Part shown: piece after piece, positions 3,384-28,515 of the stretch | Layout: every line of letters begins with the position of its first letter | Position numbering within the stretch: position 1 is the stretch's first letter | Origin: a phage | Direction: 5' to 3' (one strand) | DNA: 45,190 nucleotides | Sequence record: PZ050807.1 | Position numbers and translations under genes: made by a program | Notes under the pieces: generated by a model | Databases searched by the model: none | What the model was told of the DNA's origin: nothing | The model's input: only the letters and a program-made list of their open reading frames with translations

Positions 3384-3854
3384 TTATTTAAGTGCGCCAG
3401 TCACCAGTGTTTTTTCCATGTTGCGGAAATCTTCCGGCGTCATGAGGATTTTCGACCCGTCTTCACCGTACAGCGTCACCAGCGGTTGAGCTTTCGCTAA
3501 AACTCCCTTCGGCAGCGACCACGCATCAACCTGTTTCTTCAGGCTTTCCAACTGCGCTGCCGTTACGTCGATCTGGATCTCGTCATGCACAGTTGTGTAA
3601 GACTCACCCAGTAGCGCGGAATATGCCACTAAATCCACAATGTTATCTTCCTGGTGTTTACGGGTCTGGCGTACCAGCTTCAGGCAAATCATAAATACCC
3701 AGGCTTCTTGCTCGGTAAGGTCCCGACCGGTTAGTGCGTTGAATACGGCAGCAATCTGTTTAGCGCTGCGTTCTTCTTTGCTGTCATATCCATTTTCTTT
3801 CCCGCGCTGTTCCATAGTGGTGGCGGCGTTTTTGCAGTATTCGAATGCTTTCAT
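3384..3854 (-). CDS. Hypothetical protein, 156 aa (possibly an all-alpha NTP-pyrophosphohydrolase-like fold; weak)
   Basis: ORF directly downstream of the early promoter at 3900..3928; the segment EQEAWVFMICLKLVRQ...DNIVDLVAY is faintly MazG-like. Confidence 0.5.
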   Translation of the reverse strand: MKAFEYCKNAATTMEQRGKENGYDSKEERSAKQIAAVFNALTGRDLTEQEAWVFMICLKLVRQTRKHQEDNIVDLVAYSALLGESYTTVHDEIQIDVTAAQLESLKKQVDAWSLPKGVLAKAQPLVTLYGEDGSKILMTPEDFRNMEKTLVTGALK

Positions 3855-3894: not shown

Positions 3895-3932
3895 TGGTTA
3901 ATATAGTGCAACCAAATACGGATTGCAACCAA
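3895..3932 (-). promoter_or_regulatory. Sigma70-type early promoter (minus strand): -35 TTGCAA, 17-nt spacer ending in ATTGGTTGCAC, -10 TATATT
   Basis: Read on the minus strand: TTGCAA(3928..3923)-17 nt-TATATT(3905..3900); two copies of the TTGGTTGCA motif. Confidence 0.55.
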
Positions 3933-4154
3933 TTATTTTAATTCCTCAATCAAATTGGCACGGACAATACGGGCCGAGAAGGCATCGCACACAAGATGGC
4001 AACGCGCCGTCATGACAAGCCAGCCGGTTAGGTCACGGCCTAGCAATTGCTCCGGGCGGCTTACCCGCAATACTTTATTTCCAGGGAAAACCAGGTAACG
4101 TTTAATGATCTCATCCACGACGCGCGGACTGCGATCGACGACTAAGATATTCAT
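3933..4154 (-). CDS. Hypothetical protein, 73 aa
   Basis: Strong RBS AAGGAGA upstream of the ATG at 4154; overlaps the 3' end of the methyltransferase ORF by 44 nt. Confidence 0.45.
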   Translation of the reverse strand: MNILVVDRSPRVVDEIIKRYLVFPGNKVLRVSRPEQLLGRDLTGWLVMTARCHLVCDAFSARIVRANLIEELK

Positions 4155-4620
4155 GTAGTTCTCCTTCGCTCATTATCTTGATTTGTGCGCTGCCGTTTGG
4201 TGGCGCTTCTTCAAAGATTATCAATTGCTGACACTTGTTGTTGCTCGGTCCAACCTCGCCAGTGACGGCATGGATAAACCGGATCCGCCAGTCCAGCAAT
4301 ATAATCAGGTTGGCGGTTTTCCGCGCCAGTTTGGCCCACTTCGTGGTCGTGTCCTGGTTAAGCAGCATTACCGTTTTGCGACCCTGCGATGCGCAAGTCA
4401 CCCACGGCAGCGGGTCGGAATACGGCGGATTGCACCACTTCCACCCGTTTAACTCTGACCAGTCCGCATCAAGCGCGCTATGCTCTTTCGTGAAGTAGCG
4501 CGGTAGCAAATGGTTGTGGTCACTCGCCGCCATGTCGTAACGGAATTTAAACGCCTTGCGCAGTGGTTTGAATAAGGCTGGCGGAGTGCGCCAGCTATCC
4601 TTCTGCTCATTCTCCGTCAT
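4111..4620 (-). CDS. DNA N6-adenine methyltransferase, phage Dam-like
   Basis: NPPY catalytic motif (WCNPPYSD) and size typical of the phage N6A-MTase family; start set at MTENEQ (ATG 4620). Confidence 0.65.
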   Translation of the reverse strand: MTENEQKDSWRTPPALFKPLRKAFKFRYDMAASDHNHLLPRYFTKEHSALDADWSELNGWKWCNPPYSDPLPWVTCASQGRKTVMLLNQDTTTKWAKLARKTANLIILLDWRIRFIHAVTGEVGPSNNKCQQLIIFEEAPPNGSAQIKIMSEGELHEYLSRRSQSARRG

Positions 4621-5071
4621 GCTGCGGATCCAGTGCGTAAAGTGGGATCTGTTTGGCGCTTTCCCACAGGCGTTTAATCCTTTCCTGTTCGCCTTTACCC
4701 ATTGGGCGCATGTCCGTACTATAGTTGCCGTTGGTGGTGTCACGCCACGCGATCAGCACCAGGTCTTTACGGTCGATCTTCGTTGTTCGGCCTTTCGGAC
4801 GGACGTATTCTTCAGCACGTTTGCACTGCTCGCGTAGCCCTTCGGCGGTTATCCGGGTGAGCGATACGGATGTTGTGTACCCGGAGCGCTGCATAATGGT
4901 GATCAGTTCGCCCAGCAGTTCGAAGCGTTCCTCTAATTCCAGCAATTGCTTGTTGGTATCCTGGAATTTTTTATACATATCTTCGGCGTGGCTACGTGCT
5001 TCTTCCGCCTTCTCGCGGGCTTCCAGACACTGTGAAGCCCAGTACGCTTTTTCTTCTTGTAAAATTTTCAT
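4607..5071 (-). CDS. Hypothetical coiled-coil protein, 154 aa
   Basis: Charged helical sequence; start overlaps the upstream gene stop (ATGA). Confidence 0.5.
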   Translation of the reverse strand: MKILQEEKAYWASQCLEAREKAEEARSHAEDMYKKFQDTNKQLLELEERFELLGELITIMQRSGYTTSVSLTRITAEGLREQCKRAEEYVRPKGRTTKIDRKDLVLIAWRDTTNGNYSTDMRPMGKGEQERIKRLWESAKQIPLYALDPQHDGE

Positions 5072-5310
5072 TATTTAGTCTCCGTCATGCGAATCTCATT
5101 TTGTGGGATAAATTTGCCGTTCATCTCTACCCAGCAGGATCCGTACCGCCACTGGGTGTTACGACCGGTTTGCTCCGCATACACAGTCACGCATTCGTAC
5201 TTCTTGAAGTAATACGTGCAGGAGGAAGGCATAATGATGCAAAAAACAACTAATAGCATCCACACCCATAACCGCAAAGCACCGTCGTAATCTAAAAAGA
5301 ATCGTTTCAT
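5071..5310 (-). CDS. Small secreted or membrane protein, 79 aa, with its own early promoter
   Basis: Hydrophobic N-terminus (LRLWVWMLLVVFCIIMPSSC); RBS GAGGA; promoter directly upstream. Confidence 0.45.
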   Translation of the reverse strand: MKRFFLDYDGALRLWVWMLLVVFCIIMPSSCTYYFKKYECVTVYAEQTGRNTQWRYGSCWVEMNGKFIPQNEIRMTETK

Positions 5311-5352
5311 CGTCAAATCCTCATATTAAAAAAGGGCGTTCCCTTCAGAACA

Positions 5353-5390
5353 CCCCCAATATAATGCAACCAATCTCGCAATGCAACCAA
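5353..5390 (-). promoter_or_regulatory. Sigma70-type early promoter (minus strand) of the TTGGTTGCA family
   Basis: Minus strand: TTGCAT(5386..5381)-17 nt-TATATT(5363..5358); two TTGGTTGCA copies. Confidence 0.55.
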
Positions 5391-5394
5391 TTTA

Positions 5395-5715
5395 TTAGAA
5401 GAAATTTGGGTCGCTCATCACATCCACAAGATAAAGGTTGTTAAGGCGGTTGCCGTAATGGCCTGGCGTGCGCTGACGGCACACAACAGCGTAACCAGGG
5501 GGGATGGTATTTCCGGTCGCCAGAATCCACGCCACGCGCGCGCCGTTTAGTGATTTACCGTTGTATTCTATGCGGGTGCCGCCATCTGCAGTGTTAAGGC
5601 TGCCAATCTTCTGACCGGTAGAATTGAGACGGATAACACCAGTCTGGCTATCGTAATTAAACAGTTGTTTGGTCAGTGCTACCGAAAAATCAATTGGATC
5701 AAAGATAGTGTTCAT
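5395..5715 (-). CDS. HNH_3-like (homing-endonuclease-like) protein, possibly degenerate
   Basis: Resembles the HNH_3 pattern (GARVAWILATGNTIPPGYAVV...GNRLNNLYLV) but the expected His residues are replaced. Confidence 0.4.
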   Translation of the reverse strand: MNTIFDPIDFSVALTKQLFNYDSQTGVIRLNSTGQKIGSLNTADGGTRIEYNGKSLNGARVAWILATGNTIPPGYAVVCRQRTPGHYGNRLNNLYLVDVMSDPNFF

Positions 5716-6428
5716 TTTAAATTTTCCTCATTGACTGCAATTGCGAAGCCGCGCGGTGTGAGCGACCTGATTAATTTAGTGCGGGCGGACTTACCACCGA
5801 GCAGACTATACTGTTTGGAGTAACCTTTTTCAACAAATACCGGCTTCTTCTCCGGCATCCTGAAGCCGTTCCCCGTCCATAAGCAAGTCAGCTTCGGATA
5901 TGAATCACGCGCGTTGATATATTCCGGGAATAGCGGGTGCACATCATCTTCCGGCAGGTAGCCGCCATACTCCCACGGGTCGAACGAGTGGTCCGGCTTG
6001 CGCCACTGGGTGGATAGCACACTGCGCGGATTCTCTATCATGTATGGCACTTCGAAGAAGTCACCGAGAAAGGCCGCAATCTTCGCCGTGCGCACGGCCT
6101 TAAGCTGGAAAGCCGGGTCTTTAGCGCGTTTGCGCGGGAAAGCTGGCGCGCCGCTAACTGCCAGGTCGGTGCACGGCGGAAAGGCGTAAATAATATCAGG
6201 CGTGCCAAACTCGCCCGCCATAGCGCGGTCTACGAAGTCCAGATCGATAAACACGTTCTTATAGCGAATGCCGCGCCCATAAAGCCGGTAGTGGTTGTAG
6301 GAGCCGTGGTCGGCCCCGTCAAAGTTAAAGCAGGTGCACTTATGCCCCATCTCGGCAGCACGCTCGATCATAAGGCCGCTGCCGTCGAATAATGACCAGA
6401 TGTTTAGTATCCTAACTCGCTTATTCAC
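5712..6428 (-). CDS. Compact DNA cytosine-5 methyltransferase-like protein
   Basis: Motif I-like LFDGSG, motif IV-like PPC (AFPPCTDLAVSG) and ENV-like MIENP; GTG start overlapping the helicase stop (GTGA). Confidence 0.5.
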   Translation of the reverse strand: MNKRVRILNIWSLFDGSGLMIERAAEMGHKCTCFNFDGADHGSYNHYRLYGRGIRYKNVFIDLDFVDRAMAGEFGTPDIIYAFPPCTDLAVSGAPAFPRKRAKDPAFQLKAVRTAKIAAFLGDFFEVPYMIENPRSVLSTQWRKPDHSFDPWEYGGYLPEDDVHPLFPEYINARDSYPKLTCLWTGNGFRMPEKKPVFVEKGYSKQYSLLGGKSARTKLIRSLTPRGFAIAVNEENLK

Positions 6429-7885
6429 TTGCGGCCTCGCTTCTTCTCTTTCATATATTCCATCAGTTCATCCTGGATGTCGCGCTTACCATCACGGCGG
6501 CTTGCCACTAACTCGTCGAGCGTGCCGCGGGCCTGGATAATGTAGACGAATACCGGGCGCGGGTGTCCGGCCTGCATCTGGCGCACCGGTCCGATACGTT
6601 CGACGATCTGCGCGAAGTGCTCAAAGTTCCACGTATCCGAGAAGATAGCGAGGTGGTGTCCGCCGTCCTGTAAGTTAAGACCGTGGCCTGCCGATGCCGG
6701 GTGTGCAAACATGATCGGAATCTCGCCCCGGTTCCACGCTTCCATATCCTTAACGCCTTGCTTGCCCTTACCCATTGCGACACCCTGCGGGAATTTCTTC
6801 TTAAGGCGGGCTAGGTCGTGCTTGTACTGGTAGGCCACAAGCAGCGGTGCGCCGTTAAGTTCTTCTACGATACTTTCCAGGGCGTCAAGTTTGGCGTCGT
6901 GGATTTTCTCCCACTCGTCGGTCCGCTCGCCGTCGTCGTCAACCTTATACACAGCGCCAGATGCAAGCTGGAGGCATTTAATCGTCTTAGCGGCAGCGTT
7001 GGCGGCCTCCACTGTTCCGCTTTCCAGTTCGGCAAATAGCTCGCTCTCGAACTGGTCGTAAATCTTGCGGGCTTTCTTCGGCAGGTCAACCAGCACCGGC
7101 GTGTAAATCGGCTTGTCACACCCGAAGTATTCAGCCGCGTCAACCGTTAGCGAAATATCAGCCAGCTTTGCGTGAATCTCTTTTTCGGAGTTTTTCAGCG
7201 GGGAGTGCTGCATAGTGAAGCTGCCAGGCGCAACCGGCTTACTTATGAACCAGCGGTCGGTGAATGCTTTATAGCTACTGCCGAGGCGTTCGCCACCGTC
7301 AACAAACCAGTTCTGCCCCCACACATCCTTAAGCCCGTTGGGTGCTGGCGTACCGGTCAGGTTAATCCAGCGCTTGACGTGCTTATGTGCGATCGCCGCC
7401 AGTGCGCGAGCACGTTTACTGCCCTGCTTACTGCGGTAGCCTTTCAGCTTAGTGGACTCATCGGCAACAACGACCGTAAAAGGCCACTCCTCGCCGCAAT
7501 AGTTCACAAGCCACTCAACCACATCATAGTTGAGGCACACGACGTTCGCGCCGCTCTCAAGCGCTGTAATGCGGTCCTTCTCCGGTCCGGTGCCGTCTAC
7601 TACCTGAAGCGATGAGAATCCCCATTTATCTTGTTCCGGGGGCCACGTACCGGACGCAACGCGCAACGGGGCCAGCACCAGCACGCGGTCTTCTCCGTGG
7701 TTCAGTATGCCGGTCTGGAACATTTTGTTCAGCGCCCACATGGTAGCGCCAGTCTTTCCCGATCCCATCGTCGCCCAGATATTACAGCGGGCGTGTTTAA
7801 TGATGAAAGACGTGATTAACTTCTGGTACTCGCGCCTGCGAAAACGTGCCATCTTGTTACGCCTTTTTCCAGACTTCTGTTTCAT
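6425..7885 (-). CDS. Superfamily-2 (SNF2/DEAD-like) DNA helicase
   Basis: Walker A GSGKTGAT, DExx box VVADESTKLK, C-terminal helicase motif HPASAGHGLNLQ; start uncertain (ATG 7885 or 7852). Confidence 0.7.
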   Translation of the reverse strand: MKQKSGKRRNKMARFRRREYQKLITSFIIKHARCNIWATMGSGKTGATMWALNKMFQTGILNHGEDRVLVLAPLRVASGTWPPEQDKWGFSSLQVVDGTGPEKDRITALESGANVVCLNYDVVEWLVNYCGEEWPFTVVVADESTKLKGYRSKQGSKRARALAAIAHKHVKRWINLTGTPAPNGLKDVWGQNWFVDGGERLGSSYKAFTDRWFISKPVAPGSFTMQHSPLKNSEKEIHAKLADISLTVDAAEYFGCDKPIYTPVLVDLPKKARKIYDQFESELFAELESGTVEAANAAAKTIKCLQLASGAVYKVDDDGERTDEWEKIHDAKLDALESIVEELNGAPLLVAYQYKHDLARLKKKFPQGVAMGKGKQGVKDMEAWNRGEIPIMFAHPASAGHGLNLQDGGHHLAIFSDTWNFEHFAQIVERIGPVRQMQAGHPRPVFVYIIQARGTLDELVASRRDGKRDIQDELMEYMKEKKRGRK

Positions 7886-8078
7886 GGTGCCAATTCCTCG
7901 TCGTAGCGGTCCAGTTAAATTCGTGCCCCACATGCACGCCGGTCGCTCGGAAGCCTTTAAACTTCTTCCAGCACACAGTTAACGGCAGCGGCTCGCGCAT
8001 TGCGGCGATATACCATACGCGATCGCCGGGTTTGCAGTCGCCCAGTGTGGTAAGGCGGTAATGTTCTTTCATCGTCAT
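7857..8078 (-). CDS. Hypothetical protein, 73 aa
   Basis: ORF with RBS GGAGA upstream. Confidence 0.4.
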   Translation of the reverse strand: MTMKEHYRLTTLGDCKPGDRVWYIAAMREPLPLTVCWKKFKGFRATGVHVGHEFNWTATTRNWHHETEVWKKA

Positions 8079-17542: not shown

Positions 17543-17580
17543 GTGTAGTGCTAAATAAGTGAATAGTTATGCAAAATAAG

Positions 17581-17755
17581 TGCATAAAACAAACGGGACA
17601 AAAACGGGACAAACGACAAACGGGACAAAACGGGACGTCCCGCCGTCCCCCTCAGGAGTGGCGCGGGTTTGAGGCAAACGGGACAAGCGGGACAGACCAC
17701 AGTCTTTCAGACTAGACGGGGGGTATGGTCCCCCCTCCGTCTGAGACTGCATAAA
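17581..17755. repeat. Structured non-coding element A: ACGGGACA iterons, CGGGACGTCCCG palindrome and a long stem-loop; paralogue of 34104..34440
   Basis: Direct comparison with copy B: about 150 bp near-identical. Confidence 0.6.
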
Positions 17756-17907
17756 AGCTCTGGTTGCATAATCAACGGCAGCATAGTGAAAAATGCGGCG
17801 GGGGTAGATCTCGGCAACCAATGCGAGTTGAAGAGTGGAGAGTGAAAAATGCAGTTTGCAATTGCAACTCATAGCGATCAGCATTTTCATGCGCGTGATT
17901 AATATTG

Positions 17908-17936
17908 GTTGCACCCACCTTGGCACCTTGCTATAT
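17908..17936 (+). promoter_or_regulatory. Rightward promoter of the TTGGTTGCA family: -35 TTGCAC, 17 nt, -10 TATATT
   Basis: TTGCAC(17908..17913)-17 nt-TATATT(17931..17936). Confidence 0.5.
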
Positions 17937-17965
17937 TGGCTGCACACCATCATGAGGACTGAACA

Positions 17966-18292
17966 ATGAAAAAATTAATCTGGGTTTACGCGTTGGCGGT
18001 GGCTAAGGAGCAAGAAGCGGCAGCGTATATCACCCCGTGCAGTTATGCAGTCGAACGCTTGGAAGCGGCCCAGGCCGTTGTCCGGGTGATGAAGCGCGCA
18101 ATCATCGGTAGGCTGGAGGACCGATTCGACACGATGGCAGAGATCCAGCCACTGGCGAACGCAATCCAGGACTACGCGCTTGCATTTGCCCGTGAACGCC
18201 TGGCATACCGGTTTGGTATCGGGGAAACGGCAGTGGCTAACATCGCCCGCATTCAGGCCCAGCGTGAGCTGCACGCCATACTCGCGAAATAA
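17966..18292 (+). CDS. Hypothetical protein, 108 aa
   Basis: ORF downstream of the promoter. Confidence 0.5.
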   Translation: MKKLIWVYALAVAKEQEAAAYITPCSYAVERLEAAQAVVRVMKRAIIGRLEDRFDTMAEIQPLANAIQDYALAFARERLAYRFGIGETAVANIARIQAQRELHAILAK

Positions 18293-26153: not shown

Positions 26154-27240
26154 CCAACGACTGGCGGATCGCATGATTCGCCGTCACATCTTCACCCAGC
26201 GCCTGAGCAATGAGCAGGCGCGTAAAGTGCTGGCAATGTGGCAAAAATTCCGTCCTACGTTACTGGGTAAGCTGACCGAATTACTTGAGGGCAAGAAGTC
26301 AATGAGCAATAAGGCGCTTACCACTCTGCTAACCCAAATCGACAAAACGGTTAAGACCGAACTGCGCGACGAGTTTAAAGTGCTGGCTGAAGGTCTGGCG
26401 GAGTTTGCCGATACCGAGGCTGAATATCTGACCAACACATTAACGGCAGCACTGCAACCTGCGCTTTCAGTCCCTGCCGTTGAGGTGGTTGGTGTAGTGA
26501 CCGGTGCGCAGATTGCAGCGACGGCTATGAAAAATCCATTCCAGGGCAACACGCTTATGCAATGGCCTGATTCTCTGTCAGAATGGACCAGAACGCAGAT
26601 CAGCAATCAGGTGCGCGCCGGATTTATCCAGGGCAAACCTACTATGCAAATTATTGCGGACGTCAAGCGCGCGTTGGGCGGTCGTAGCGCGCAGGCCATT
26701 TCAAGCGTGGTCAAGTCCGCAGTCAACCACTATGCGGCGACCGCACGCGAATTAATGGTAAAAGCAAATGATGATATTCTCGACGGTCGCCAGTGGCTTT
26801 CTACACTGGATACTCACACCTCAACGCTCTGTCAGTTACGCGATCGCCTGTTTTATCCGGTTGATGTTACCCCCGAAACAAAAGGGAAACGGGACGGGAA
26901 AGTGGTGGCTGGATCACAGTATGGCGCTGGTCCGGGCAAGCTACATTATTGTTGCCGTTCTACCGAGACGTGGAAAGTCAAGGGTATGGAAGATTGGCCC
27001 AGTGGTAAGCGTCCGGCACTGAAGGCCGAAGCGGGTAAACTGCTAAGTGAGCAGGTCAGTGCTAAGACGGACTTCTTCTCCTGGGTACAGCGCCAGCCGC
27101 GGCATATCCTTGAGGAATTATACGGAGTGCAGCGCGCGGACCAGATCTTGCGGGGCGTGAAAGTTCCGACCATGTTTAACGACGCGGGCGAGCTTATGAC
27201 GATTCAACAACTGAAAAATAAGGGGTTATGGCGTGATTAA
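26131..27240 (+). CDS. Head morphogenesis (minor head) protein
   Basis: Synteny (portal-adjacent), 369 aa. Confidence 0.5.
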   Translation: MTMPRKINQRLADRMIRRHIFTQRLSNEQARKVLAMWQKFRPTLLGKLTELLEGKKSMSNKALTTLLTQIDKTVKTELRDEFKVLAEGLAEFADTEAEYLTNTLTAALQPALSVPAVEVVGVVTGAQIAATAMKNPFQGNTLMQWPDSLSEWTRTQISNQVRAGFIQGKPTMQIIADVKRALGGRSAQAISSVVKSAVNHYAATARELMVKANDDILDGRQWLSTLDTHTSTLCQLRDRLFYPVDVTPETKGKRDGKVVAGSQYGAGPGKLHYCCRSTETWKVKGMEDWPSGKRPALKAEAGKLLSEQVSAKTDFFSWVQRQPRHILEELYGVQRADQILRGVKVPTMFNDAGELMTIQQLKNKGLWRD

Positions 27241-27541
27241 ATACGCAGCAGTCGGATTGATTCTCGGCCTTGTAATTGGGTTCTGGCAAGGTGACAACTA
27301 TCGTGCTGGCGTGGTGGCGGAGGCGGCGCAGGAAGCGCAAGCCAAAGCCCAACGGCAGCAAACTAAGGTAATCCATGAGTCGGTACAGAAAGAGCAGGCC
27401 CGCGAAGTGGAGTTCCGCACAGTTGAGAAAGAGGTGATTAAATATGTCACGCGTCCTGATCGCGATAATTGTAAGTTTGATGCTGACCGCGTGCGGATCA
27501 AGCAACGTGCCGTTGATGCCGCTAACGGAATCAGCAATTAA
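27233..27541 (+). CDS. i-spanin (Rz-like)
   Basis: N-terminal transmembrane helix MIKYAAVGLILGLVIGFW followed by a charged coiled coil; contains the start of the overlapping o-spanin. Confidence 0.55.
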   Translation: MIKYAAVGLILGLVIGFWQGDNYRAGVVAEAAQEAQAKAQRQQTKVIHESVQKEQAREVEFRTVEKEVIKYVTRPDRDNCKFDADRVRIKQRAVDAANGISN

Positions 27542-27674
27542 GCCGCCGTGTAAGTTTGAGTCGCCATCGGAAGATCCGGACGAAGATTTAGCGATTGATG
27601 TGCGAAATATGAAATGCGGGGCGGAGTTAAGGGCACAAGTGCTGGATTTGCAGAAATTAATTAAGGGGCCGTAA
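27444..27674 (+). CDS. o-spanin (Rz1-like outer-membrane lipoprotein)
   Basis: Signal peptide with lipobox LTAC-G, Pro-rich; starts inside Rz in the +1 frame (overlapped architecture). Confidence 0.55.
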   Translation: MSRVLIAIIVSLMLTACGSSNVPLMPLTESAIKPPCKFESPSEDPDEDLAIDVRNMKCGAELRAQVLDLQKLIKGP

Positions 27675-27687
27675 TGGCCCCTTTCTA
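27664..27687. terminator. Bidirectional intrinsic terminator
   Basis: AGGGGCC-GTAAT-GGCCCCT followed by TTCTATT; same stem as the terminators at 2743 and 43357. Confidence 0.65.
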
Positions 27688-28449
27688 TTAGCGCGGAATA
27701 CCGCAGATTTCGTTTAGTGTCTTCACGTCAAGCGCTACTGCCGTTGACTTCTTCTCTTCCTGCGGGATGAACTGTTTCACTTCAGGCCATGCCTTAATAA
27801 GTTTGGTGTCTGTAGTGTACTTATTCAGAGTACCCATAACTGACAATTTAAACTCATCGTATTTAGCACGTAAATCGCGGCGCGCCTTGTCGTTCTTATC
27901 CAGACGTTTGCAAAATTCATGCTCTGCCGGGTAATCTGCACGACCGCGAGGCTTGTAGATCGGCACTTGCTCACCTTCCGCGTTAATTTCCACCAGCGCC
28001 GTAAGTAGCGCAGTTTCAAACCCAGGTACGATTTCGCCAATGTCCGGGGCCATCGAGTTATTGTAGCGGTCTTCCCAGTAGCCTCGGTGACAGCGGCTGC
28101 TGTAGTTATCACCGCTCAATGACAGTGTGCGGATGTTACCACCCATGTTGACTTCGAACGTTGCATCGTACACAGCACCAATGCCGTGGGGCATGTCCTT
28201 GTTATGGCTGAAGGTTGCACGGCTGGCGTACACGCTTATGCTAAACATGCCGTTATTTGTGTCTTGATAGCTGCGCATCATTTTCTGCAACCCAACGAAG
28301 CTGGTAACACCTTTCGGCATCTGATCCAGAGTGATAGCCAGCGCCAGGTCGCGCGATTCGGTCATTAACTTTTTGGCCTGCTTCGTGATTTCGTGGCCTG
28401 CCAGGATGTTAGCCAGGATTTGCTTTTTAATGTCTTTAGTCAGTCTCAT
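27688..28449 (-). CDS. Hypothetical protein, 253 aa; inverted single-gene cassette inside the head module
   Basis: Start at MRLTKDIK (ATG 28449, RBS AGGAAACAACA); own early-type promoter and terminator. Confidence 0.5.
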   Translation of the reverse strand: MRLTKDIKKQILANILAGHEITKQAKKLMTESRDLALAITLDQMPKGVTSFVGLQKMMRSYQDTNNGMFSISVYASRATFSHNKDMPHGIGAVYDATFEVNMGGNIRTLSLSGDNYSSRCHRGYWEDRYNNSMAPDIGEIVPGFETALLTALVEINAEGEQVPIYKPRGRADYPAEHEFCKRLDKNDKARRDLRAKYDEFKLSVMGTLNKYTTDTKLIKAWPEVKQFIPQEEKKSTAVALDVKTLNEICGIPR

Positions 28450-28479
28450 TGTTGTTTCCTCGTTTGTTGGTGTGCAACC

Positions 28480-28508
28480 AATATATTGCAACCAATTAGC
28501 CAATGCAA
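28480..28508 (-). promoter_or_regulatory. Early-type promoter (minus strand): -35 TTGCAT, 17 nt with ATTGGTTGCAA, -10 TATATT
   Basis: Minus strand: TTGCAT(28508..28503)-17 nt-TATATT(28485..28480). Confidence 0.5.
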
Positions 28509-28515
28509 GCAAATT

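Follow-up and report, generated by a model that had tools for sequence, protein, structure and literature searches.

A compact gene in the phage sequence record PZ050807.1 probably encodes an active, orphan, phage-borne DNA cytosine-5 methyltransferase that depends on S-adenosylmethionine (SAM) and most likely targets CCWGG, a reading to which the combined evidence leads us to assign a probability of approximately 0.72. The whole record, hereafter called the window, comprises 45,190 nucleotides and corresponds to an almost complete Dhillonvirus genome (an HK578-like Escherichia coli siphophage); its sequence is circularly permuted relative to the genomes of phage Ioannina and Dhillonvirus LM40P1, with ~97–99.6% nucleotide identity over most of its length. 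The gene occupies positions 5712..6428 and encodes 238 amino acids plus a stop codon from a GTG start, as read from the open reading frame list and by direct translation. The open reading frame reported there by a first-pass annotation is thus real, and its strand, which that annotation had not given, is minus, as for the motifs and adjacent genes located below. The gene, its motifs, its fold, its family membership and its coupling to the adjacent genes were established in the present analysis. The gene is already known and is ordinary for this phage group, since both the activity of the family and its role as a retron trigger have been published and a 99%-identical gene has been annotated as ‘cytosine specific methyltransferase’.

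The protein matched PHROG 757 (‘DNA methyltransferase’) with an E-value of 2.7e-80 over residues 8–236, and its best homolog was found at E=2.6e-148. Residue conservation was counted over 76 diverse family members sharing 33–55% identity. The short motifs LFDGSG, FPPCT and IENP, from which a C5-methyltransferase-like protein had first been suspected, were all present on direct translation. Motif I, LFDGSG (6375..6392), corresponds to the SAM-binding loop after strand beta-1 in the hhalign alignment with ‘LFDGIATG’ of DNMT3A; across the wider family it is degenerate, with the consensus FDx[T/S]G and a single Gly. Motif IV, FPPCT (6168..6182), contains the catalytic nucleophile Cys86 (6171–6173), which was conserved in 76/76 members, aligned with PCN of DNMT3A and is equivalent to C82 of the K42 Dcm described below; as noted in the first-pass annotation, this Cys is followed by Thr and not by Gln. 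Motif VI, IENP (6027..6038), carries Glu132, equivalent to E128 of K42 Dcm, with E132 and P134 conserved in 76/76 and N133 in 74/76 members, and IENP aligned with ENV of DNMT3A in a relaxed hhalign run. Overall, five residues were invariant across the 76 members (C86, E132, P134, Y177, and W184), and a further eight were nearly so (F83, P84, N133, K179, T181, R221, P225, and G227).

Two additional motifs were assigned towards the C-terminus. A motif VIII-like strand, KLTCLWTGN (5868..5894), resembles ‘RARYFWGN’ of DNMT3A and coincides with a beta-strand at residues 181–186 of the structural model; K179, which corresponds to K175 of K42 Dcm, was conserved in 75/76, T181 in 74/76, and W184 in 76/76 members. 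A motif X-like segment, IRSLTPRGFAIAV (5733..5771), resembles ‘GRSWSVPVI’ of DNMT3A by pattern and runs into a C-terminal helix (226–236 in the model), with R221, S222, P225, and G227 conserved in 74, 68, 72, and 74 of the 76 members, respectively. Both assignments are putative, being based on sequence pattern and predicted secondary structure and not on superposition.

Experimental evidence for the activity comes from a homolog in phage K42, which is 95% identical to the BASEL phage KarlJaspers (Bas06). Wang et al. (bioRxiv 10.1101/2023.08.16.553469, published as Cell Rep 2024, 43:114857) reported that all four K42 escapers from retron Ec86/Eco1 were mutated in a 711-bp ‘dcm’ gene, and that 34 of 35 Ec86-sensitive phages encoded such a Dcm. 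In the same study, expression of K42 Dcm raised the 5-methylcytosine (5mC) content of the retron multicopy single-stranded DNA (msDNA), as measured by liquid chromatography coupled to mass spectrometry (LC-MS), and was toxic in combination with the retron, whereas a C82A/E128A/K175A/K176A quadruple mutant produced neither the rise in 5mC nor the toxicity; mutating either C of the CCTGG site of the msDNA abolished defence. Later papers cite the Dcm trigger of the retron as established. We located the 711-bp gene in KarlJaspers and found the window protein to be 54% identical to its product over the full length (E=2e-86). C82, E128, and K175 of K42 Dcm map to C86, E132, and K179, respectively, while K176 is replaced by Leu180. 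The K42/KarlJaspers and window proteins (236 and 238 amino acids, respectively) represent one compact family, both carry Asn at motif II, and in both KarlJaspers and the window the gene lies near an SNF2-type helicase gene with a separate Dam-like gene alongside. The KarlJaspers gene belongs to the Drexlerviridae and has neither an overlap with the helicase gene nor a downstream HNH-like gene, whereas both overlaps are present in the Dhillonvirus window. Because of the published experiment on K42 Dcm and the clear membership of the window protein, we regard the family as bona fide 5mC-forming DNA methyltransferases; together with the invariant Cys and Glu, the K42 data also speak for the first of two earlier proposals for this protein, a minimal cytosine methylase.

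The fold was consistent with this assignment. An AlphaFold2 model built from 38 homologs (predicted local distance difference test score, pLDDT, 90.8; predicted template modelling score, pTM, 0.89) exhibited a class I Rossmann-like methyltransferase fold with the topology of the C5-methyltransferase large domain, and the best 50 Foldseek matches were all DNMT3A/B/C or DNMT1. Hidden Markov model alignment of the family profile to DNMT3A with hhalign gave E-values of 2e-4 to 3.7e-5 and brought motifs I, IV, and VI into register. The sequences used for M.HhaI and the DNMT3A catalytic domain were 100% matches to Protein Data Bank (PDB) chains, and in the relaxed DNMT3A alignment the residue mapping past motif VI is unreliable. 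The motif IV Pro-Cys and the motif VI Glu of the DNA cytosine-5 methyltransferase superfamily (EC 2.1.1.37 fold class) were both present. The C5-methyltransferase-like identity proposed at first pass is therefore borne out by the modelled fold, by the motifs in register with DNMT3A and by PHROG 757 membership.

As modelled, the enzyme has its closest structural match in the catalytic domain of DNMT3. The compact family and DNMT3A share SLFDG at motif I and the same motif IV–VI spacing of 46 residues, and they differ by PC-T-DL versus PC-N-DL at motif IV, ENP versus ENV at motif VI, LWTGN versus FWGN at motif VIII, and IRS-L-TP versus GRS-W-SVP at motif X. The identity with the DNMT3A/DNMT3B catalytic domain (PDB 6u8p, 5yx2, and 8tdr) was ~15%, with TM-scores of only 0.45–0.57, and DNMT3 acts as a tetramer (with DNMT3L or itself) on CpG; the resemblance is one of working principle and does not indicate direct descent. 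Sequence similarity to the canonical bacterial enzymes M.HhaI, M.HaeIII, and E. coli/Shigella Dcm (PDB 10mh, 3ubt, and 3lx6) was undetectable. Relative to canonical PF00145 proteins, the compact enzyme has PCT for PCQ, ENP for ENV, KxT for RxR, and IRS for GN[AS], and it showed none of the marks of orthology with E. coli Dcm or M.EcoRII (~470 residues, PCQ/ENV/GN, a large target-recognition domain (TRD), and often an accompanying Vsr). ‘Dcm-like’ is accordingly a functional label, not a statement of orthology with E. coli Dcm, because sequence similarity is undetectable, the motifs differ, and both the TRD and motif IX are lacking. KP27_137, the ‘Dcm’ of the KP15/KP27 myoviruses, was considered as a possible relative and rejected as an unrelated canonical PCQ enzyme.

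Several observations weigh against the assignment as an active cytosine methyltransferase. The window protein had no match in Pfam, even at E<=10, and none in NCBIfam; only 5 of the 76 family members reached E<=1 against PF00145 (best E=0.0039). Membership of canonical PF00145 fails on gathering score, on the motif VIII arginines and on the TRD and motif IX. The hhalign comparison of the family profile with M.HhaI gave nothing significant, and PDB searches, run with the sequence alone and with two profiles of the family, returned chance-level matches to a kinase and to short-chain dehydrogenases and no methyltransferase. The arginines of the canonical motif VIII (QxRxR) are absent, with Lys and Thr at both Arg positions by pattern-based mapping (K179-L-T181-C-L-W184), and the acidic position of motif II, at the end of strand beta-2, is Asn35 in this clade, where 72/76 members have Asp. 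Finally, the evidence for 5mC formation and for retron triggering comes from the K42 homolog, in a group of phages distinct from Dhillonvirus. A catalytically dead or non-DNA enzyme, be it a DNA-binding or regulatory protein with a methyltransferase fold or an RNA methyltransferase of the DNMT2 type, is nevertheless very improbable: neither the catalytic Cys nor the catalytic Glu varies in the family, and the K42 homolog shares the motif II Asn and the motif VIII Lys and yet raised DNA 5mC in a manner dependent on the four jointly mutated residues. In the structure search, moreover, DNMT3, CmoX, a prophage methyltransferase, and HhaI all ranked above DNMT2.

The second earlier proposal, a repurposed methyltransferase fold performing different base chemistry, has a concrete model in CmoX (PDB 8yf3), a phage C5-carboxymethyltransferase defined by an SPPC motif and by an Arg that replaces Asn304 of M.HhaI and binds the carboxymethyl group of carboxy-SAM (PMC12783734); E. 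coli CmoA can supply this cofactor (PMC12783734). By analogy, the window enzyme would be a DNA cytosine C5-carboxymethyltransferase that draws carboxy-SAM from host CmoA and yields 5-carboxymethylcytosine. Arg221 (74/76 members) does lie at the position equivalent to Asn304 of M.HhaI, but this equivalence is pattern-based and not derived from superposition, and the SAM-dependent DNMT3A/B, which are the closest structures, have the same Arg (‘GRSW’). The Ser of SPPC is Phe in 70/76 members, including the window protein (FPPC), and LC-MS on the K42 homolog showed more 5mC. In addition, CmoX has 372 residues, a full small domain and a GC target, as opposed to 238 residues and no annotated cmoA/cmoY partner here; most CmoX genes occur with CmoA, whereas no CmoA-like or amide-ligase family was present among the Pfam hits listed for 44 open reading frames of the window (down to E=1.7e-11) or in the Ioannina annotation. 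Carboxymethylation is therefore highly unlikely, and with it the different base chemistry envisaged at first pass.

In a conventional cytosine methyltransferase, motifs VIII and X are separated by a small domain that comprises a variable TRD and motif IX, and this domain was not found in the window protein. Its position is taken by a basic linker of 32 residues (5772..5867; eight Lys/Arg and two Asp/Glu; pLDDT 77–78), in which the model contains only two short helices. The corresponding gap has a median of 33 residues (range 25–50) in the family, compared with 92 in DNMT3A, which is already considered minimal with a TRD loop and motif IX, and 137 in M.HhaI. With only 32 residues available, a conventional TRD and motif IX must be absent, in agreement with the earlier remark that the protein is too short to contain a conventional TRD. 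To our knowledge, no solved C5-methyltransferase uses a recognition mode that lacks both the TRD and motif IX. Because these elements are replaced, target reading would have to come from the linker, the basic catalytic loop and/or a family-specific conserved segment of 37 residues between motifs VI and VIII (residues 142–178, 5895..6005; WRKPD...YGGYLPEDDxHP...RDxYP), in which W142, R143, P151, Y177, and others are conserved and which we regard as a candidate DNA-contact or recognition element. It is conceivable, if on balance doubtful, that the family consists of catalytic-core-only C5-methyltransferases reading their target through this segment and the basic linker, with a true specificity or substrate preference that may differ from that of host Dcm, for instance towards hairpins or partly single-stranded DNA such as msDNA and intermediates of replication. 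Our literature search retrieved no paper on how such a catalytic-core-only enzyme recognises its site, or on the exact site. Family members with extensions of 80–200 residues had no Pfam domain in the extension. The HNH-like protein encoded downstream was considered as a TRD supplied in trans and rejected, since members of the Drexlerviridae occur without that neighbour and K42 Dcm alone was sufficient.

The target is somewhat more probably CCWGG than not, as judged from circumstantial evidence on two phages that encode homologous enzymes. First, both cytosines of the msDNA CCTGG site were required for retron defence, as described above. Second, DNA of phage KP36, which has 155 CCWGG sites, was fully resistant to EcoRII in its 2013 characterisation, in which all of the enzymes cut phage KP34, a phage that lacks a methyltransferase. 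The KP36 authors found no phage cytosine methyltransferase and credited host Dcm with the resistance, which counts against a phage-encoded origin. We found, however, that KP36 (NC_029099.1) gp74 (17553-18245, minus strand; 230 amino acids) is a member of the compact family with 44% identity and ‘PSC’ for ‘PPC’ at motif IV, and gp74 appears a likelier cause of the EcoRII resistance than host Dcm. From these data we infer CCWGG specificity and a role in anti-restriction. The following points count in the opposite direction: the K42 study (10.1101/2023.08.16.553469), whose host MG1655 is itself dcm+ (10.1101/2023.08.16.553469), took CCWGG as the target by analogy; the mutations in the msDNA site could have their effect via effector binding and not via methylation; and in BASEL, methyltransferase genes bore no simple relation to resistance against restriction. 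A literature search found no direct methylome of any phage carrying the compact family.

These points bear on an alternative in which the enzyme is an active DNA C5-methyltransferase whose target is not simply CCWGG and whose specificity may be shorter, relaxed, or dependent on structure (hairpin or single strand). Such a specificity, if true, would account for the firing of retron-Eco1 by the phage enzyme but not by host Dcm: Ec86 is tolerated in dcm+ MG1655, and msDNA 5mC was low until the phage enzyme was expressed, although the difference between the host and phage enzymes could also be one of expression level. The scant 32 residues at the TRD position, the fact that CCWGG was assumed and not mapped in the K42 study, and the lack of a simple gene–phenotype relation in BASEL are likewise compatible with it. 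On the other hand, the high conservation of the candidate recognition segments in the family points to a defined common target, and both the loss of defence on mutation of either msDNA cytosine and the complete EcoRII resistance of KP36 DNA agree better with CCWGG. McrBC cuts at purine-5mC, and since the phages grow on McrBC+ K-12 strains, promiscuous cytosine methylation is hard to reconcile with their plating. We therefore consider this alternative unlikely, albeit the most serious of those weighed here, and retain CCWGG as the preferred target. Within the window, CCWGG was not avoided (147 observed and 148 expected), a further circumstantial point in favour of that target, and neither was GCGC (388 and 391). 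Strong avoidance was seen for many restriction-type palindromes, among them AAGCTT (0 and 13.9), CAGCTG (0 and 11.4), GCCGGC (1 and 17.4), GGCGCC (1 and 15.7), CTAG (14 and 53.7), and GGCC (170 and 236).

Under the preferred reading of a CCWGG-directed cytosine methyltransferase, the gene would be expressed as part of the replication module, as the central gene of a helicase–methyltransferase–HNH chain linked by translational coupling. Its product would be essentially a catalytic domain alone, in which SAM is held by motifs I and II together with the helix of motif X, Cys86 of FPPC attacks C6 of a flipped-out cytosine, and Glu132 of ENP protonates N3, so that the methyl group is moved to C5 to give 5-methylcytosine. 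Newly replicated phage DNA would thus be kept methylated with or without host Dcm and be shielded against restriction of the EcoRII type. This activity is at the same time a liability: when enzymes of the family methylate the msDNA of retron-Eco1 (Ec86), abortive infection is triggered.

The family is widespread among phages. A tblastn search found the protein in 1,514 phage records with hosts including Escherichia, Klebsiella, Salmonella, and Shigella, and the phage groups included Dhillonvirus, Drexlerviridae, Kagunavirus, Sashavirus, and rV5-like and RB49-like phages; annotations in these records were as varied as ‘hypothetical protein’ and ‘Dcm-like C5 cytosine methyltransferase’. When 1.84 billion cluster representatives (50% identity) were searched with a family profile, 1,883 sequences were retrieved at E<=1e-3, almost all of which had 210–280 residues, so compactness is a trait of the family and not the result of truncation. 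A scan of ~185,000 species-representative genomes yielded only 22 loci. Genes of prophages adjoined them (four for integrases and others for an S24 repressor, Gp157, Rad52/ERF, SSB, and terminase), with no restriction endonuclease partner seen at any of the 22. The family is thus phage-borne and orphan, that is, it has no partner restriction enzyme. A Vsr gene near one cellular homolog was examined as a possible partner and set aside, as it belongs to an adjacent canonical dcm-vsr pair of the host and provides no evidence on the compact family. At two Yersinia prophage loci (4797-6043 and 1128-2656 of the extracted loci), the C5 homolog directly precedes a gene that carries a methyltransferase motif of the DPPY type (N6/N4), and the two genes abut or overlap by one base; this arrangement parallels the way in which C5 and Dam-like methyltransferases are paired in the phages.

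The window gene is translationally coupled to its neighbours. Upstream lies an SNF2-family DNA helicase gene (6425..7933; PF00176, 3.5e-9; PHROG 62 ‘DNA helicase’, 6e-154), whose TGA stop (6425-6427) overlaps the GTG start of the methyltransferase gene (6426-6428) as GTGA (6425..6428), as had been noted at first pass and was read directly from the sequence here. A Shine–Dalgarno-like GAGG (6435..6438) lies 6 nt 5′ of the GTG, within the helicase coding sequence, and phages welsh and Envy (~82% nucleotide identity) have ATGA at exactly the same helicase/methyltransferase junction; the overlap, the GAGG element and the conserved junction together uphold the coupling to the helicase proposed earlier. 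Downstream, the methyltransferase stop and the ATG of an HNH-like gene of 106 amino acids (5395..5715; PHROG 99 ‘HNH endonuclease’, 1e-13) share ATGA (5712-5715), which is also kept in welsh and Envy. Because overlaps at both junctions are kept in relatives, the three genes constitute a conserved translationally coupled chain. The 106-residue HNH-like protein had no match in a Pfam scan; by eye, the ‘DH...N’ catalytic stretch of HNH_3 seems to be replaced by VVCRQRTPGHYGNRLNNL, and the protein may have degenerated from a homing endonuclease, possibly retaining DNA binding alone.

The GTG is the sole start that retains strand beta-1 and motif I, since no other canonical start codon occurs upstream of motif I, and N-terminal conservation among homologs also favours this longer form. 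The 99%-identical gene of Ioannina in GenBank (OQ589852.1, 28354-29013) is annotated from an internal ATG as a 219-residue protein that omits both strand beta-1 and motif I; the GTG start is preferable because the internal ATG would delete motif I.

The present findings concern a very common phage gene family that is unrecognised by Pfam and NCBIfam and is often annotated as ‘hypothetical protein’ or given a truncated start. The family being invisible to these standard domain libraries, what is likely its activity has been credited to the host in at least one published restriction analysis (KP36). Carriage of the gene predicts opposite outcomes, namely protection from restriction at an unmethylated site and sensitivity to retron-Eco1, which senses the activity of the enzyme, and both matter for the choice and engineering of therapeutic Dhillonvirus and Drexlerviridae phages. 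A C5-methyltransferase of ~230 residues without a TRD is also a tractable minimal system for studying recognition within the catalytic core, and the compact enzyme could serve as a small methylation tool.

Other putative DNA-modification genes were observed in the window. A gene with an Nmad5 domain (nucleotide modification associated domain 5; 27691-28512, minus strand; PF18757, E=1.1e-42) lies on the opposite strand within the head-gene block and is 99.6% identical to that of Ioannina and ~62–64% identical to those of most other Dhillonviruses. In a Dhillonvirus nmad5, a single Lys-to-Glu change was linked in 2025 to escape from the Tmn defence system (PMC11846954). Nmad5 was considered as an obligatory partner of the methyltransferase and rejected, as the methyltransferase occurred in ~1,500 records and full-length Nmad5 in ~150, and the Dhillonvirus Opt212 has Nmad5 with only a methyltransferase remnant.

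A Dam-like N6-adenine methyltransferase gene (4111-4743, minus strand; PF05869, 2.7e-37; TIGR01712 just under the cutoff) belongs to the same module as the compact gene, and GATC was moderately under-represented in the genome (151 observed and 203 expected). The surrounding stretch (3915-5324 of the window and 26340-27967 of Ioannina) is the one region of departure between the two genomes, with only ~78% identity at 4121-4940 of the window. The ~0.66-kb ‘acid phosphatase’ gene of Ioannina (26342-27034) has no aligned counterpart in the window and is probably the ‘unique gene of intergeneric origin’ of the Ioannina publication. A nearby open reading frame of 156 amino acids (3384-3854, minus strand) is labelled as a second ‘DNA N-6-adenine-methyltransferase’ in Ioannina, whereas here it matched only PHROG 9871 (unknown function) and ‘phosphofructokinase’ PHROGs; the methyltransferase label on this counterpart thus looks wrong. 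The Ioannina helicase is labelled ‘chromatin remodeling complex ATPase’, and several other Ioannina product names, such as ‘mature oligodendrocyte transmembrane protein’, look like over-interpreted domain hits.

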